A DNA stretch of 64,000 bases from a virus, in the IMG/VR virus record IMGVR_UViG_3300001765_000033, positions 1-64,000 of that record. One strand, 5' to 3'. Position 1 is the first letter of the stretch. The number at the start of each line of letters is the position of its first letter. A program made the translations under genes and the position numbers. Of this stretch, positions 171-62,750 are shown one piece after another. The notes under the pieces are model-generated. The model ran no database searches and had not been told where the DNA came from. It was given only the letters and a program-made list of their open reading frames with translations.

Positions 171-2987
171 ATGCTAGGTTTTTACCCATTAACGTCAAGA
201 CCCTTATCAGGGACACCATTAATACAATATGAATTATCGTTAGATTCTTCTAGTTTTGCCGTTTCTGGTGCCAATGCAACCTTAGTAAAATCAAAAACAC
301 TGAATCTGGCAGCAGATTCTTTTGTCGTTTCTGGTGCTGCATCTTCTTTATACCAAGCAAAAACAGTTTCGCTCGATTCTGCTACATTCTCTGAAACTGG
401 ATCATCGGCGACATTAGCTAAGTCTACGATTGTTGATTTAAATTCTGCAGTATTCTCAGAAACTGGATCGGCAGCAACTTTAACAAGGCAGAAATATTTA
501 AATTCTGCTTCTGATTCATTTGTTATATCTGGCAATTCTGCCACATTAATAAAAGACGCAAACATCAATTTAAACTCCAGTTCGTTTATTGAAACTGGAT
601 CATCTGCAACTTTAACCAAGCAATATTATGTAAACGGAGAATCTGCCACATTTTCTGAAACTGGATCATTAGCCAATTTAATCAAAACTACAATTGTTAA
701 TTTAAATTCATCCAGTTTTACATACTCAGGATCAGCAGCAACTTTAACCAGACAGAAATATTTAAATCTAGGTGTTGATTCATTCTCAGAAACTGGATCA
801 TCTGCAACCCTAATAAAATATTCCACAGTAAATCTAAATTCTGCTGCATTTACTTACTCTGGATCATTAGCGACATTAACTAGGCAATATCCATTAAATG
901 CTGCTTCTGCATCGTTTGTAGAATCTGGTTCAGTATCTTACCTAACAGTACAGAAATATTTAAATCTAGGATCAAACTCATTCGCAGTTTCTGGTGCTGT
1001 TGGGTGGTTATTAAAAGCATATTATCTTAATCTTGATTCTGGCACATTTTCATTAACTGGAAATTCTGTCACTCAGACTGCAGCAAGGCAAATAAACCTA
1101 GCATCGACTGCCTATTCAGAAACTGGAAATTCAGCGACAATAGGATATCAAAGGAATTTTAATTCTCAGTCTTCAAATTTTACATTAACAGGACAGTCTG
1201 CTAGTTTCATTTTAACTAAGGAAATACAAGGAAATCCTGCCATATTTGTATTGGCAGGATTTCCTGCGACATTATTAAAAACTACTCCAAGTGCGTATGA
1301 ATCTGCTCAGTTTGACATTGAAGGGTATTCTTGTGCTCTTACTAAGCAGTCATTACTAAAATCAGATTCTACTTCTTATTCTGAAACAGGCCAGCCAGCT
1401 AATTTACTTAAAGCAAAATTAATACAAAGCGATTCAGCGACAGTTAGTATTGTTGGATATCAAACGAATTTCAATAAGCAATCATTACTAACCTTAGCCT
1501 CAACTGCTTATTCAGAGACAGGACAGCCAGTTAGCTTAATTGCAACTAGGCAAATGAACTGCAGTTCTGCCTCATTTATATTAAATGGACCGCCAGCAGC
1601 ATTATTAAAGGCTATACCTAATTCATATGATTCTGCCGCATTTGATATTGTTGGATATGACGCAACTCTTACTAAGATATCGCTATTAACCTTAGCATCA
1701 ACTGCTTATTCAGAAACCGGAAATACTGCAAGTTTATATCATAGTAAGGTAATTCAATCTAATTCTGAAGCATACTCATTAACCGGATATTCAGCATTAA
1801 TATGTAAAGCCACAATATCTAGTTTTGATTCAGATTCATTTTCATTAACAGGATCAAATACATATAATTATAAATCATATTATCTGAATCTTGGTAGTGG
1901 TAGTTACTCAGTATCAGGACAGCAAGCTAAATTCGATTTAGTATCAAAATTAAATTCTGCTTCTTATTCAGTAACAGGCAATTTAATTTATGCGTCTATA
2001 TCATCAAATCTTAATCAATGGAATATATCTGTTGATGGACAAAATGCTGAGTTAATAAAATCATATCTAAGATCAAACGATTCTGCTGCGTATTCTGTTT
2101 CTGGATTATCGGCATCCTTAATCAAGCAGAAAATATTAAACTTAGCCTCAACTGCTTATACTGAAACTGGAAATGCTGCTTGGTTATGTAAAGGATATGT
2201 TTTAAATTCTGCTGCTGGAAATATATTAATTTCTGGTGCTGATGCAGAGTTAATTACTCCAGTAAAATTTACCATCGATGCAGGCTCATTTGATGTAATT
2301 GGAGCACCGACCAACCTCTGCAAACATACAGTATTAAGCTTAGATTCTACTGTATTCTCAATATCTCTACGAACTACATCAAAAGATTTGGTTTTTGTTT
2401 GTGAGTCTGCAAGTATATCTGTAGCCGGGGCCAATTTAACAACGCTTCACCATAGATATGTAAGCCTTGAGTCAGGTTTAATAACAACGACCGGATCAGC
2501 GTTTTCTGCCTTTCTATCAAAAGTAATTAACTCTCAAGCAGGACATTTTAATCTAACTGGTAATAATTCTACTGAGTATCGAAATAGGGTATTAAGTGCA
2601 ACACCAGATGCAATTAATCTAACTGGTAATAATTCTACTGATTATCATAATAGAAAATTAAATGCGGAGTCTTCTACAGTTAATGCAACTGGTAATGAAG
2701 CAGAATTTTATAGAAGTTTATATATTGGCTTAGATGCATCCACATATAATATATCTGGATCGACAATATCTAAACACCATATATTCTACTCGACTTTAGA
2801 TTCAAGCACATTTAATATTAATGGACAAGATGTAGATTTATTAAAAGATTATACTAGGGGCGGCGAGTTTAATGTATCAGGTAATAATATAGAGTGTTTA
2901 TTGAAGCTTAATATATTTGAGCCAAATTATGATTATATGATTTATTATAGAAGCAAGAAATCTGATGTTGTATTCGATTTCGTCTAA
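171..2987 (+). CDS. Ser/Thr-rich repeat virion fibre/scaffold protein
   Basis: 938 aa of roughly 21-22-aa repeats (LxLxSxxFxxTGxxAxLxK); late-type CATAAATA at 117-124; directly precedes neck genes. Confidence 0.6.
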   Translation: MLGFYPLTSRPLSGTPLIQYELSLDSSSFAVSGANATLVKSKTLNLAADSFVVSGAASSLYQAKTVSLDSATFSETGSSATLAKSTIVDLNSAVFSETGSAATLTRQKYLNSASDSFVISGNSATLIKDANINLNSSSFIETGSSATLTKQYYVNGESATFSETGSLANLIKTTIVNLNSSSFTYSGSAATLTRQKYLNLGVDSFSETGSSATLIKYSTVNLNSAAFTYSGSLATLTRQYPLNAASASFVESGSVSYLTVQKYLNLGSNSFAVSGAVGWLLKAYYLNLDSGTFSLTGNSVTQTAARQINLASTAYSETGNSATIGYQRNFNSQSSNFTLTGQSASFILTKEIQGNPAIFVLAGFPATLLKTTPSAYESAQFDIEGYSCALTKQSLLKSDSTSYSETGQPANLLKAKLIQSDSATVSIVGYQTNFNKQSLLTLASTAYSETGQPVSLIATRQMNCSSASFILNGPPAALLKAIPNSYDSAAFDIVGYDATLTKISLLTLASTAYSETGNTASLYHSKVIQSNSEAYSLTGYSALICKATISSFDSDSFSLTGSNTYNYKSYYLNLGSGSYSVSGQQAKFDLVSKLNSASYSVTGNLIYASISSNLNQWNISVDGQNAELIKSYLRSNDSAAYSVSGLSASLIKQKILNLASTAYTETGNAAWLCKGYVLNSAAGNILISGADAELITPVKFTIDAGSFDVIGAPTNLCKHTVLSLDSTVFSISLRTTSKDLVFVCESASISVAGANLTTLHHRYVSLESGLITTTGSAFSAFLSKVINSQAGHFNLTGNNSTEYRNRVLSATPDAINLTGNNSTDYHNRKLNAESSTVNATGNEAEFYRSLYIGLDASTYNISGSTISKHHIFYSTLDSSTFNINGQDVDLLKDYTRGGEFNVSGNNIECLLKLNIFEPNYDYMIYYRSKKSDVVFDFV

Positions 2988-3006
2988 ATATTAAAAAGGA
3001 CACACT

Positions 3007-3936
3007 ATGGACATTCAATCAAGACAAGATTTAGTAGATTACTCATTGCGACAGCTTGGTGGTGGAGTGATCAACATTGAAATTACGCCAGAGCAGCTAG
3101 AGGATGCTGTCACTGATGCTATACAATATTATCAAGAATATCACTATGATGGTATCGAAAGAGATTACATAAAATACCAAGTTAAGCCAACAGCAGTGAC
3201 GGTGTTAGATGCTATTGGGTTTGTTATCGGCGATACAATTACCACTACTGAAGGTGGCAGTGCTAAGATTTATGATATCATTGGTAATATAATCTACACC
3301 CAAAGAAATTACGGAGTAGTATTTAAATCTGGACAAACTATTACTAATGCTCTAGTTTCTACCGATATTGTTTCAGTAAAACTTGAAGCAATGGATTTAG
3401 GATATATCGATTTGCCAGATAATATATTTTCTGTGTTGAGAGTAGTTAATACATCAGGCATTTTGCAGAGTCAGGATATTTTATTCAATATTCAATATCA
3501 GATTATGTCTAATGAAATAAGAAACATAACCGCTGGTTCAGCAAATTATCTATATTCAACCATGAATTATCTAGGGCATCTAGATTTTATTCTAAGAAAA
3601 GAGAAATCATTTAGATTCAATCGAAGAATAAACAAGATATTTTTTGATTCTTCGTGGGAATTGCAAGCAGGCCAATGGTTTGTTTTTGAAGTTTATTTCA
3701 CGCTTGACCCTGAAGTATATCAGGAAGTATATAACGACAGATGGTTAAAGAGATATGTTACAGCCAAAGTGAAAAGATTATGGGGTACGAATCTTAAAAA
3801 ATACAATGGTATGACATTGCCAGGAGGAATCCAATATAATGGTCAGATCACATATGACGAAGCAATGCAAGAGTTAGCAGAATTAGAATTAGAAGCATCT
3901 GGTTCTGGTGTTCCTTTGGGTCTTTTCATTGGATAA
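3007..3936 (+). CDS. gp13: Neck protein gp13
   Basis: LRQLGGGVINIEIT, WLKRYVTAKVKRLWGTNLKKY, LPGG motifs; T4 synteny. Confidence 0.92.
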   Translation: MDIQSRQDLVDYSLRQLGGGVINIEITPEQLEDAVTDAIQYYQEYHYDGIERDYIKYQVKPTAVTVLDAIGFVIGDTITTTEGGSAKIYDIIGNIIYTQRNYGVVFKSGQTITNALVSTDIVSVKLEAMDLGYIDLPDNIFSVLRVVNTSGILQSQDILFNIQYQIMSNEIRNITAGSANYLYSTMNYLGHLDFILRKEKSFRFNRRINKIFFDSSWELQAGQWFVFEVYFTLDPEVYQEVYNDRWLKRYVTAKVKRLWGTNLKKYNGMTLPGGIQYNGQITYDEAMQELAELELEASGSGVPLGLFIG

Positions 3937-58657: not shown

Positions 58658-58674
58658 AAATTAGGTAAATAACA

Positions 58675-58707
58675 AGGCCTGTGGTACAATATCACAGGTC
58701 TTTTTTT
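58675..58707 (+). terminator. Terminator hairpin with TGgTACAAT at the loop, upstream of gp43
   Basis: AGGCCTGTG-GTACAATAT-CACAGGTCT followed by a T-run. Confidence 0.75.
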
Positions 58708-58718
58708 ATTGGAGAATT

Positions 58719-60206
58719 ATGGATTTTTATACAGACGTTCGCAGGTATGGAAATAATATTTTGTTTCGTGGAATAAACAACGGAAAGCAAGAAATTGGTA
58801 AGGTAAAGTTTCAGCCGACTTTGTTCGTTAAATCAAAGGACAAAAATTCAGAATGGAAATCGTTGTATGGCGATCCTCTTGAGCCTAAAAAGTTTGCTGA
58901 TATCAATGAGGCAAAGGGATATCTAGAAAAGTATAAGGACGTTAATGGGTTTGAAGTTCATGGTATGGAAGATTATCAATATCAATTTATTGCTGAAAAA
59001 TATCCGACTAAGATTGATTACGATGTTAACCAAATGAAAATTTCAATCATAGACATTGAGGTCATTGATCCGACTGGTAATACCCCTTTTCCTGATGTTC
59101 AGGAAGCTCAAGTGCCAATTGTGTTGATTTCTTTGGTTGATAAAACTTCTGGAAAAACCGATGTTTTTGGCTGGAAAGATTACATCAAAGATTTAGATGA
59201 TAATTTTGAATATCATAATTACAAATCTGAAAACGAAATGTTGAAAGCTTTTGTTGGCTTTTGGCAGCAGAATTATCCTCATATTTTTTCTGGATGGAAT
59301 ACACTAACATTCGATACTCCATATTTGGTAAATCGAATTCGCAGAGTTCTCAGTGATGATTGGGTAAATAAGTTATCTCCGCATGGTATCGTAAAAGAAA
59401 AAATAAAAAAAGGCATGAACGGGCAAGAGATTCAGACATATGAGATATATGGTATTGTTGAATTAGATTATTTGGAATTATATCGAAAATTTACCTATGG
59501 TAGCAGAGAATCTTATACTTTAGGATTTATTTCTGAATTGGAGTTGGGGGAAACGAAATTAGAAATTGAAAGTGAATCTTTTTATGATAGCTATGTAAAT
59601 CATTATCATCAACTTATCAAATATAACGCCATCGATTCTCAGTTAGTGAATAAGATTGATTCTAAAATGCGTTTGTTAGAATTGATTATATCTATTGCAT
59701 ATATGGCTAAATGTAATATGTCAGATGTATTTGGCCCGGTGAAAACTTGGGATGTTTTCATTTACAATTATATGATAACTAAGAAAATAGTTCCTCCACC
59801 TAAAAAACATTCATCTGGTGGTTCGTTTGAGGGCGCATGGGTGAAAGAACCAGTTCCTGGTATGTATGGGTGGATGGTGTCTTTTGACGCAACCAGCCTC
59901 TATCCAACGATCATTAGGCAGTGGAATATGAGTCCAGAGACTTACGTTTCTGATTACAGCGAACCTATAAAAGTTGTTGACGTTCTTTCGTGTGAGCAAG
60001 GTCTATCTAAATACGCTTTCGATAACAATTGTTCGGTAGCGGCAAACGGCACTTTTTATCGAAAGGATAAAAAGGGTATATTACCATCTTTGATGGAAAA
60101 TATGATGATTCAAAGAACTGTCGTAAAAAAGGAAATGCTAAAATTAGAGCAAGAATATCAGGACATTAAAGAAGAGCTAATGAAACGCGGCGTAAGTTGT
60201 AAGTAA
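58719..60206 (+). CDS. gp43: DNA polymerase gp43, N-terminal half (gp43A: exonuclease plus motif A)
   Basis: DIEV, GWN..TFD.PY, YNAID, SFDATSLYP; stops in the first fingers helix. Confidence 0.93.
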   Translation: MDFYTDVRRYGNNILFRGINNGKQEIGKVKFQPTLFVKSKDKNSEWKSLYGDPLEPKKFADINEAKGYLEKYKDVNGFEVHGMEDYQYQFIAEKYPTKIDYDVNQMKISIIDIEVIDPTGNTPFPDVQEAQVPIVLISLVDKTSGKTDVFGWKDYIKDLDDNFEYHNYKSENEMLKAFVGFWQQNYPHIFSGWNTLTFDTPYLVNRIRRVLSDDWVNKLSPHGIVKEKIKKGMNGQEIQTYEIYGIVELDYLELYRKFTYGSRESYTLGFISELELGETKLEIESESFYDSYVNHYHQLIKYNAIDSQLVNKIDSKMRLLELIISIAYMAKCNMSDVFGPVKTWDVFIYNYMITKKIVPPPKKHSSGGSFEGAWVKEPVPGMYGWMVSFDATSLYPTIIRQWNMSPETYVSDYSEPIKVVDVLSCEQGLSKYAFDNNCSVAANGTFYRKDKKGILPSLMENMMIQRTVVKKEMLKLEQEYQDIKEELMKRGVSCK

Positions 60207-60263
60207 GGTGATAATTTAATAAATGATAAATAGTATGGTAGTCTTATTCAATCAAGGAACCAT

Positions 60264-61457
60264 ATGTTACCAATTAACACTTTTCATTATGACAGATATA
60301 TTCGATTTTTATCTCTATTACCAAAAAGAGATAAACCAAAAGCTAAATTTAGTGGATTAGAAAAACATCACATATACCCAAAATCTTTCGGTGGAACTGA
60401 TGATTTAAGTAATTTGATATATTTAACTTGCCGAGAACATTATCTAGCCCATTGGATGCTTGCTAAGGCGTATGGCGGAGTTATGTGGTTTGCGTTTAAT
60501 CAAATGAAGCGAGTCATACAAGGCGATATTAAGAAAAGCAGTTTATATTCTTTATCCAGAAAATATATTTCTGAGCAAATAAGTATTTCTAATACTGGAA
60601 ATACTATGAGTGATTATGCTAAAAACCTTAAGACTATTATGTTTTCCGGTAAAGTTTGGGTAAAAAATAAAGATGATTATTCCGATTATATGTTAATTTC
60701 TAATACTGATGAGAGATATTTAAGTGGTGAATATGTTGGAATTCAAACTGGATTGCTTAGGTCTGAAAGTTCTAAGAAAAATATGGCAGATAAAAACGGA
60801 CTGAGAGGAAAAGTTAGTGCGTATAATATCCAAACTAAGGAAGTGTCGTATTTTTATGAAAGTGAAATTCCATTAGACTATATAAAAGGCAGAACCCCCG
60901 AATTTAAGAATATAATATCAGAAAGATACACAGATATGAAATTTTATAAGAATTTTGATACTGGTGAAACCAAAAGAATAAAAGATGGTAGCCCAATACC
61001 ATATGGATTTATTCTTCACAGAAATTTGGATGATATGCAGAATGGATTGAACAAAATGAACGATCCTAATAGTATGTTAGTTTATGATGTATCGTCCAAA
61101 ATTTCAAAAATAATACCCAAAACCGAATTTAATTCAAGTAAATTTTATACTTCTGTGGCTACCACTGCAAATGCTGTTGTTTTTGAAAATTATGTTTTTG
61201 ATTCCGTAGATACATTTAATAAACTTCTTCCGGATTTTAAAAAAATTAGTAAAAAAAATGCTACGGATAAAATCAAAATGGGTAAGCTACAGAAGAGAAA
61301 ATTCTGTGAAAAATTTAAAGATATGTGTTATAATGATATAGGTTTCTTCGTAATTAAAATTACGGAGTTAGTTTGGAATGAAGATATGATTTTTATAAGG
61401 AAAATTGATGAATCTCTCGCAAATGAGTGTAGAAGAATTGTTATGTGCGAAGCATAA
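60264..61457 (+). CDS. HNH homing endonuclease (mob-like)
   Basis: EKHHIYPKSFGGTDDLSNLIYLTCREHYLAH. Confidence 0.88.
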   Translation: MLPINTFHYDRYIRFLSLLPKRDKPKAKFSGLEKHHIYPKSFGGTDDLSNLIYLTCREHYLAHWMLAKAYGGVMWFAFNQMKRVIQGDIKKSSLYSLSRKYISEQISISNTGNTMSDYAKNLKTIMFSGKVWVKNKDDYSDYMLISNTDERYLSGEYVGIQTGLLRSESSKKNMADKNGLRGKVSAYNIQTKEVSYFYESEIPLDYIKGRTPEFKNIISERYTDMKFYKNFDTGETKRIKDGSPIPYGFILHRNLDDMQNGLNKMNDPNSMLVYDVSSKISKIIPKTEFNSSKFYTSVATTANAVVFENYVFDSVDTFNKLLPDFKKISKKNATDKIKMGKLQKRKFCEKFKDMCYNDIGFFVIKITELVWNEDMIFIRKIDESLANECRRIVMCEA

Positions 61458-61512
61458 TCTTGAAAGTAAAATTTCTGCTTTAAATAATGAGCAGATGGCG
61501 ATAAAAATCCTT
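61408..61512 (+). CDS. gp43: gp43B exon 1 (35 codons, not in ORF track)
   Basis: AAGGA RBS and ATG 61408; MNLSQMSVEEL...NNEQMAIKIL supplies the Q..K part of PolB motif B. Confidence 0.82.
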
Positions 61513-61760
61513 AGAATTTGTGAGGCTTGATTCGGTAACGAATTTTGAAAACCCTGTGAATTCGGTGAAACTCCAGAACGGACAATACCGAGCCAAACCC
61601 AAAATGGGAAGCGTGTAACGACTAGATCGAAAGATCGTACATTCAAGTGAATGGAAGCGCAGGGCATCCTATTAGGATGATGATATAGTCTGATCTGTAT
61701 AGGAATATACAGCAGCTTAATAAGCGGGATAAGATTAACGATCTTATTTGAACATAAATG
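61513..61760 (+). mobile_element. Group I self-splicing intron (248 nt, no ORF)
   Basis: 5' exon ends in U with P1 CCUU/GAGG; terminal G; P10 AGAAUU/AAUUCU; core GAAUUCGGUGAAAC, AAUACCGAGCCAA; P7 GACUA/UAGUC; splicing restores KILNNSLYG. Confidence 0.88.
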
Positions 61761-62750
61761 AATAATTCTTTATATGGCGCTATAACTCAGAACAGCTTTA
61801 GGTATTACATTTTGGCAATTGGTGAGGCTATCACTTTGTCAGGGCAAGCCAGTAATCGACATTTAGAATTGCATCTAAATAAGTATTTCAATAAAATATT
61901 GAAGACTGATGATATTGATTATGTGGCGTATTCGGATACCGATTCAAATTATATCAATTTTGATAGCATAGTGAATAAGCTATGCAAAGATAAATCGGAC
62001 ACGATTAATATTGTGGAGTTTCTTGAAAAGCTTGCATTAAAATTACAAGATACTGTTATTAAAGAATCAACAGATCATATTTTCAATTTGTGTAATTGTT
62101 TTGAAAATTTGATGAGTTATAAAATCGATACGGTTTCCGAAAAGGCAATTTGGACTTCAAAGAAACGATACTGCATGATAGTCCATAGCGCAGAATTGGT
62201 TAGGTATCATCCTCCGAAACTTAAAATCATGGGTATGGATATTATTAAATCCAGCACACCAAAAGCTATTCGTGCGGAATTAAAATCTTGTTTGCCTATT
62301 ATTTTTAATAAAGGTGAGATTGCTTTAAGAGAATTTGTGACATCCGTTAAAGATCGATTCTATTCTTTACCAGTTTCTGATATCGCATTCCCTCGCGGCA
62401 CAAATGACATTGAAAAGTGGATGGATGGTAATGGATATAAGATCAGAGTGCCTGTTCATGTGCGCGGTTCTATAAATTACAACAATCTCACTACTTCATT
62501 CCCGAAGTATGATAAAATACGCAGTGGCGATAAAATTAAATATGTGTATCTGAAAATTCCAAACACGATAAAGGAAAATGTTATATCATTTCCAACATCA
62601 AAAACTTTGCCACTCGAATTTGGATTGGAAAAATATATTGATAAAGAACTTCAGTTTGAAAAAGCGTTCTTAAATCCACTGGAAGCAATCACTAACGCAA
62701 TAGGTTGGCAACTGGAAGAGAAGTCAGATTTGAGTGAGTTCTTTTGCTAA
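61761..62750 (+). CDS. gp43: gp43B exon 2 (palm/thumb)
   Basis: NSLYGA, AITLSGQ, YSDTDS, KKRY, SSTP, clamp-binding LSEFF. Confidence 0.92.
   Translation, partial: NNSLYGAITQNSFRYYILAIGEAITLSGQASNRHLELHLNKYFNKILKTDDIDYVAYSDTDSNYINFDSIVNKLCKDKSDTINIVEFLEKLALKLQDTVIKESTDHIFNLCNCFENLMSYKIDTVSEKAIWTSKKRYCMIVHSAELVRYHPPKLKIMGMDIIKSSTPKAIRAELKSCLPIIFNKGEIALREFVTSVKDRFYSLPVSDIAFPRGTNDIEKWMDGNGYKIRVPVHVRGSINYNNLTTSFPKYDKIRSGDKIKYVYLKIPNTIKENVISFPTSKTLPLEFGLEKYIDKELQFEKAFLNPLEAITNAIGWQLEEKSDLSEFFC

Follow-up and report, generated by a model that had tools for sequence, protein, structure and literature searches.

Organization of the gene 43 region

The stretch of DNA analysed here, which we call the window (64,000 nucleotides (nt), positions 1 to 64,000 of IMG/VR virus record IMGVR_UViG_3300001765_000033), comes from a 94.6-kb virus contig with an estimated completeness of about 53%, and this report concerns its DNA polymerase gene (PolB, gene 43) together with the homing endonuclease gene and the group I intron found there. 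As judged from its sequence, the host is an uncultured, deep-branching T4-like phage. The polymerase is encoded by two cistrons, 43A and 43B, with the break at the tip of the fingers, and the order along the locus is 43A, a 57-nt spacer, an HNH open reading frame (ORF), 43B exon 1, the group I intron and 43B exon 2, as follows (lengths in amino acids, aa, for proteins).

58719..60206, + strand: gene 43A, N-terminal polymerase subunit, 495 aa (Pfam DNA_pol_B_exo1, E 3e-20; DNA_pol_B, E 2e-13)
60207..60263, + strand: intercistronic spacer, 57 nt, with a late-promoter-like box, a possible hairpin and a Shine-Dalgarno (SD) sequence
60264..61457, + strand: predicted free-standing Mob-type HNH homing endonuclease gene, 397 aa (PHROG, Pfam, tblastn, conserved residues)
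61408..61512, + strand: 43B exon 1, 35 codons, MNLSQMSVEELL...QMAIKIL (sequence reading)
61509..61525, + strand: P1 helix, exon CCUU (61509-61512) with guide GAGG (61522-61525) (Rfam alignment)
61513..61760, + strand: ORF-less group I intron, 248 nt, terminal G at 61760 (RF00028, exon joining, covariation)
61761..62750, + strand: 43B exon 2, NNSLYG... to the C-terminus, 329 codons and stop (Pfam DNA_pol_B, 20.5 bits)

The 43A protein contains the exonuclease domain, motif A and the first fingers helix, ends in ...EELMKRGVSCK followed by a stop codon, and is at best about 43% identical to cyanomyovirus polymerases; exon 2 of 43B is 38-46% identical to the C-terminal halves of T4-like polymerases. 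The 43B ATG (61408) falls within the final 50 nt of the HNH ORF, in another frame, and is preceded by the SD sequence AAGGAA at 61397-61402, and the N-terminus encoded by exon 1 is similar to those of other split 43B genes. The 55 nt that separate the HNH stop from the intron (61458-61512) all lie within exon 1. An earlier note on this DNA had placed the end of the HNH ORF at 61457 and the start of the intron at 61513, and all of its coordinates proved exact when set against the ORF list, the Rfam alignment and our reading of the sequence.

Intron structure and predicted splicing

The Rfam group I model RF00028 matches 61503-61712 over its full length (model positions 1-253) with 96.2 bits (E 1.5e-23), the gathering score being 50; the match ends 48 nt before the true 3' end, omitting a P9.x hairpin and a GAACAUAAAUG tail that are common to relatives. 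The 5' splice site falls after U61512, the partner of G61522 in a U.G pair of P1 (CCUU/GAGG), and the 3' splice site after G61760 is the sole one in frame. Joining of the exons gives AAA ATC CTT / AAT AAT TCT TTA TAT GGC, that is K-I-L/N-N-S-L-Y-G, an in-frame KxxxNSxYG motif B, and the predicted ligated junction reads AAAATCCTT/AATAATTCT, with the slash at the splice point. Because of the U.G pair, the sole in-frame 3' site and the canonical motif B that results from joining, the intron can be assigned to 61513-61760, and the claim that it interrupts the KxxxNSxYG codons was thereby borne out.

Homologous polymerase introns, 14 in all, were found in IMG/VR and in GenBank phages, with 58-75% identity to that of the window. 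An eight-sequence intron alignment, folded with RNAalifold, has compensatory double changes in 41 of the 63 consensus pairs; P7 and J8/7 are invariant among the aligned homologues, the splice-site U.G pair is kept in all seven alignable homologues (7/7), and the guide pairs of P1 co-vary with the exon sequence. Beyond the region covered by the Rfam model, every member of the lineage also has a hairpin with a UAACG loop and a 3' tail similar to GAACAUAAUG. The ORF-less intron is thus almost certainly a working ribozyme of conserved structure.

The intron was also said to encode no nuclease, and this holds: a sense ORF is absent, and the candidate of an intron-encoded nuclease was rejected. The only long frame is a 99-aa antisense ORF (61368-61667, - strand) that runs across the intron and exon 1, belongs to no Pfam family and is probably spurious.

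The endonuclease gene and its proposed expression

The ORF at 60264-61457 has a ribosome-binding site of its own and is predicted to encode an intact homing endonuclease of the Mob-type HNH kind. Residues 28-294 match PHROG 655, 'homing endonuclease' (E 5e-30), the Pfam families HNH and HNH_5 match residues 28-58 with 20.1 bits, just below their cut-offs (21.4 for HNH), and tblastn finds genes annotated as 'mobile endonuclease' or 'HNH endonuclease' in T4-like phages of Acinetobacter, Vibrio and enterobacteria at about 30% identity. The N-terminal HNH motif, EKHH...N...H...H with the catalytic His, Asn and His, occupies residues 33-63, and E33, H35, H36, N50, H59 and H63 are invariant among the window protein and eight environmental homologues of 27-41% identity. 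Relatives of the protein contain NUMOD3 DNA-binding motifs, and the gene is present as a single copy in the 94.6-kb record. An AlphaFold model (pLDDT 72.5, pTM 0.38) gave no match at E <= 0.001 in a Foldseek search of the PDB, where weak HNH-domain rows only were returned; a profile search of PDB sequences likewise gave marginal HNH matches only, which do not illuminate the DNA-binding part.

The HNH gene might be supposed to be an inactive, end-of-cycle remnant beside which only the intron still functions, since splicing is needed for phage life. Degraded copies do occur among related loci (cited here by L numbers): the HNH N-terminus of L017 lies in a different frame, the HNH gene of L170 is inverted and in two frames, and the HNH proteins of L005 and L009 are shortened to 251-263 aa; the Pfam score of the window protein, just below the cut-off, points the same way. 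The window ORF is nevertheless full length (397 aa vs. 389-414 aa in homologues), has no internal stops, retains all of the family-invariant HNH residues and is preceded by a good SD sequence and a promoter-like box, and we regard it as quite improbable that this copy is a fossil.

In the spacer, a late-promoter-like box, GATAAATA (60225-60232, a match to ATAAATA), is followed by the SD sequence AAGGAA at 60254-60259, and a (N)TAAATA-type box stands 6-35 nt before the HNH start in eight of nine HNH cassettes. A possible hairpin (60233-60239/60259-60265, -11.2 kcal/mol) covers part of the SD sequence and the start codon; a transcript starting just past the box (60239) could not form it, and read-through RNA could. 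Such a pairing of spacer hairpin and late box resembles the control that a review describes for T4 endonucleases. With z -1.0, the hairpin does not exceed shuffled sequence in stability, and control of the HNH gene by a hairpin that sequesters its ribosome-binding site is at most weakly suggested. The spacers of the window (60226-60240) and of L004 (4961-4975) share the 13-nt sequence TAAATAGTATGGT, and the polymerases of the two are only about 36% identical.

Similarity to characterized endonuclease-intron systems

The architecture of split polymerase, endonuclease and ORF-less intron is already known from Aeromonas phage 25, and the window is a further example, with a nuclease of another family and a shifted intron site. 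According to the reviews PMC2988022 and PMC2993671, gene 43 of phage 25 is divided into 43A and 43B, whose proteins co-purify and are active. A free-standing endonuclease gene of the seg type (GIY-YIG) separates the two halves, and the group I intron in 43B, itself devoid of an endonuclease, is predicted to rely on this GIY-YIG enzyme. The reviews also credit the original work with having shown that the intron self-splices. The layout was confirmed in the GenBank record, where the intron follows NSLYGA plus 1 nt, and the same arrangement and intron site are present in Escherichia phage vB_EcoM_G2285.

Like phage 25, the window has a PolB split at the fingers tip, a spacer, a free-standing endonuclease gene before 43B and an ORF-less intron in 43B, and its intron is homologous to those of phage 25 and G2285, with 60-63% identity, the same core, the UAACG hairpin and a GAACAUAAUG-type tail. 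The differences are several: the endonuclease is of the Mob-type HNH kind rather than GIY-YIG and seg-like, the intron follows KIL, 22 nt upstream of the phage 25 site, and has a different guide sequence, 43B begins 50 nt inside the endonuclease ORF whereas the two genes abut in phage 25, and the host polymerases are only about 32% identical. Petrov, Ratnayaka and Karam, in a 2010 article in J Mol Biol, reportedly found that homologues of the 43B site without the intron are cleaved by the phage 25 enzyme, and that the intron self-splices.

A second parallel is offered by T4 MobE (Wilson and Edgell 2009, PMC2790892), an HNH enzyme of the family to which that of the window belongs. By nicking T2 nrdB it makes the nrdB intron next to it mobile in trans; the nick falls about 100-130 nt into nrdB, away from the intron insertion site, the nrdB intron holds a defunct ORF, and co-conversion tracts in T4 extend up to about 2 kb (PMC2790892). 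Like MobE, the predicted enzyme of the window has an N-terminal Mob-type HNH and is encoded by a free-standing gene between two parts of a replication/nucleotide-metabolism operon. As with MobE and nrdB, where intron mobility depends on MobE, the neighbouring intron is without a working endonuclease, but it is ORF-less, unlike the nrdB intron with its defunct ORF.

The earlier note had looked to T3-like phages and cyanophages for precedents of collaborative homing. Such pairs are indeed described, namely the DNA-polymerase intron of T3-like phages with a free-standing HNH enzyme and the psbA intron of cyanophage S-PM2 with F-CphI (Bonocora and Shub 2009; Zeng et al. 2009), and cleavage of intron-less DNA by both enzymes at the insertion site has been demonstrated (PMC3984707, PMC2790892). 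The host genes of these pairs (PolA, psbA) are unsplit, whereas the PolB of the window is split, and the present pair is a candidate for such homing. The closest precedent is rather the T4-like Aeromonas phage 25.

The break in the polymerase

When aligned with the unsplit polymerase of the sister locus L111, the polymerase of the window is broken at the fingers tip and has about 25 additional residues, 9 at the 43A end and 16 at the 43B start. The C-terminal motif of 43A, ...E-E-M-K-R-R-G (EELMKRG in the window, 60180-60206), is common to split polymerases of different clades, plain ones being without it, and the tail may be a portable interaction or split module. Similar 43A ends occur in L087, L112, L153, L154, L130 and L004.

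The polymerase would not be split at all if the HNH ORF were part of another, larger intron, or of a twintron, by which 43A and 43B became joined as RNA, and comparable insertions are annotated as introns in some records, such as that of Acinetobacter phage AB-Navy4. A permissive Rfam scan of 60100-61560, however, found no credible second ribozyme; since no ribozyme surrounds the HNH gene, the gene is free-standing and the polymerase truly split. Moreover, 43A ends in a stop codon and its C-terminal extension is common to other split genes, 43B has its own SD sequence and ATG, the P1 helix of the sole intron lies directly at motif B, and there is the activity of the co-purified split proteins described for phage 25. 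A second intron or twintron around the HNH gene was accordingly rejected as extremely improbable. As for AB-Navy4 (L001, OL770259.1, 45160-50840), its polymerase, annotated as 'interrupted by intron', contains a 3.8-kb insert with six ORFs, including an opposite-strand HNH, in which Rfam finds no group I intron, and the gene resembles a split one more than one with an intron.

The splitting of the host gene had been attributed to the HNH and intron pair. The survey does not support this, as fingers-tip splits exist with a spacer only (L112, L153, L248) or with unrelated inserts. Given splits without any nuclease, a causal role of the HNH gene in the split of the window does not follow from the data, and the gene may instead have entered a pre-existing split. 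A review makes the same caveat for phage 25 vs. 44RR.

Around the split gene, a UvsX-like gene follows the polymerase in the ORF list, and a strong terminator-like hairpin (58674-58702, a 13-bp stem and then a T run) lies between an upstream 401-aa ORF and the 43A start.

Distribution among related phages

IMG/VR was sampled in three independent ways: through the HNH family (sample a), through polymerase proximity (sample b, the 80 polymerases nearest to that of the window, with a related-locus search built on five 43B sequences) and through the intron sequence pattern (sample c, which is therefore blind to nucleases). In sample (a) nine distinct polymerase alleles have the closest HNH homologues at the same place, between their 43A and 43B parts, and in six of these (window, L004, L005-7, L008, L011 and L017) the ORF-less intron stands just downstream. 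The order 43A/HNH/43B exon 1/intron/exon 2 thus recurs in five other lineages, whose polymerases are 29-36% identical to that of the window.

About 70 of the 80 polymerases of sample (b) are plain, that is unsplit and intron-less, with the HNH gene absent, and the intron was found in none of the approximately 60 nuclease-free polymerases of this sample. Its fingers-tip splits are occupied by a spacer only (L112, L153), a small unidentified ORF (L095, L098), a DUF559-type nuclease (L154) or 3.5 kb of other genes (L130). L087 combines a fingers-tip split and a DUF559-type nuclease with an intron of the same lineage, and the polymerase of L126 is split elsewhere by a different HNH. Sample (c) yielded the intron by itself in unsplit polymerases (L265, L218, L250), in a polymerase split by a bare spacer (L248) and together with the inverted, frameshifted HNH gene of L170.

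On a FastTree phylogeny of 74 polymerases the distribution is patchy, and no fewer than 10 changes of split or cassette state and 5 of intron state are required. Almost all cassette-bearing polymerases have a plain sister; for the window this is L111, 48% identical. The intron insertion sites, numbered from the K codon of motif B, are distributed as follows.

nt 7: L170
nt 8: L005, L087
nt 9: window, L004, L265
nt 19: L008, L011, L017, L218, L250
nt 20: L248
nt 31: phage 25, G2285

Some of these loci have further insertions. In L005 (6122-8652, and the same in L006 and L007), L017 (6473-7015), L218, L250, L198 and L238, an intein-like insert (...VTEDHS... to ...VHN/S) breaks exon 2 a second time near motif C, with a separate ORF inside or alongside that has a DUF559-type nuclease-like end, so that these polymerases bear three or four selfish elements at once. 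In L087 the 43A gene is also broken (2043-3038), by about 1 kb with an opposite-strand HNH ORF (2161-2889). In L042 (4974-7868) an HNH gene of the same family follows 43A, and the next genes are nrdB-like and nrdA-like instead of 43B; the second half of the polymerase must therefore be elsewhere in that genome.

Proposed mobility of the cassette

We interpret the locus as a composite selfish cassette that occupies the polymerase gene of this deep-branching T4-like phage and presumably spreads through its endonuclease, and give this reading a probability of roughly 0.6. The HNH enzyme itself probably co-mobilises the intron. The intron would self-splice and so restore KILNNSLYG, and the endonuclease would be made late from its own TAAATA-type promoter. 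During mixed infection the enzyme would nick or cleave, within motif B or close to it, those polymerase alleles of related phages that have no endonuclease gene, and recombinational repair from the donor would copy the endonuclease gene and the intron together, by co-conversion over about 300 nt. Two variants may be distinguished. In strict collaborative homing the cut would fall exactly at the insertion site and the intron would protect its own genome; in trans homing of the MobE type the cut would fall nearby and the intron would hitch-hike.

Co-mobilisation is suggested by the conserved structure of the intron, the intact catalytic residues of the HNH protein, the recurrence of the gene order in divergent lineages, the absence of the intron from the approximately 60 nuclease-free polymerases of sample (b), the patchy distribution on the polymerase tree, with a plain sister of the window, the precedents of phage 25 and T4 MobE, and the late-promoter-like box in eight of the nine cassettes. 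The collaborative-homing candidate proposed in the earlier note is reasonable and in part supported, by an intact adjacent HNH gene, a ribozyme with 41 of 63 pairs compensated and pairing in five other lineages, but the pairing is facultative. The expectation of co-occurrence in relatives fares similarly: the five lineages agree with it, and the HNH-only and intron-only alleles and the DUF559-paired L087 depart from it.

Several observations weigh against this reading. The HNH gene is without the intron in three of the nine alleles (L009, L010, L042), and the intron is without an adjacent nuclease in four (L265, L218, L250, L248); the intron nearest to that of the window, in L265 (75% identity, same site), belongs to an unsplit polymerase with no endonuclease. 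In six phylogenetically independent contrasts the intron follows the nuclease in two or three pairs and does the opposite in none, which is too few (p = 0.25). Close relatives were absent from megablast against phages, from a search of 43A against IMG/VR, in which one truncated contig matched, and from a search of 43B against metagenomes, whose best matches of 42-52% were all plain, and a recent gain or loss is consequently not visible. The flanking exons give no clear co-conversion signal, exon 1 identity being slightly raised against L248 (0.49 vs. 0.31) but with an inconsistent pattern. As to the two variants, the HNH-only allele L009 retains an intact AAAATCCTA site, which argues, if indirectly, that the HNH family does not strictly need the intron for self-immunity.

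The HNH-only and intron-only alleles also speak for two independent residents of a hot spot, where the HNH gene would spread only itself by way of a tolerated break at the fingers tip and the intron would be an older resident of motif B, persisting by vertical descent or occasional reverse splicing, with adjacency reflecting a shared gene preference and no cooperation. In the same direction point the intron tree, which clusters by insertion site rather than by partner (L005, with HNH, and L087, with the DUF559-type nuclease, are sisters with support 100/99), the unrelated inserts that the fingers tip also hosts, and the presence of the intron family at six motif positions, each with a matching guide sequence, for which reverse splicing is a better fit than homing. 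On the other side, any endonuclease break in the polymerase gene would co-convert an intron that lies 55 nt past the HNH stop (T4 tracts extend to about 2 kb, PMC2790892), and the polymerase-based sample contained no nuclease-free polymerase with the intron. The equivalent enzyme of phage 25 is, moreover, reported to cleave the 43B site when the intron is absent. We consider it rather unlikely that the two elements are independent. Under the preferred reading, that of a composite cassette, the distribution fits an HNH-intron pairing that is real but facultative: nucleases would come and go at the split, and the intron lineage would persist and occasionally move, the two often being carried together.

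Implications for T4-like polymerases

A broader and more tentative view, to which we give somewhat less than an even chance, is that T4-like polymerases contain a portable platform made up of the motif-B intron and the fingers-tip split. A single intron lineage would have settled at six positions within 25 nt, its guide re-tuned each time, and would have had HNH, GIY-YIG and DUF559-type nucleases as partners, and the split may travel with conserved coding extensions, namely the 43A end ...E-E-M-K-R-R-G and the 43B start M-x-L-S-x-x-E-L. If this is true, the series of alleles described above (plain, split only, nuclease only, intron only, both, and with inverted nuclease) would represent snapshots of the assembly and disassembly of a mobile intron.

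The importance of the window itself is modest, in that it places an HNH-based and differently sited example beside the one experimentally studied polymerase with a split, an endonuclease and an ORF-less intron. In annotation some caution is called for, as a polymerase gene in such phages may consist of three pieces. The layout is not confined to a single Aeromonas phage: uncultured T4-like phages have it too, with nucleases that are interchangeable and an intron that occupies several positions.

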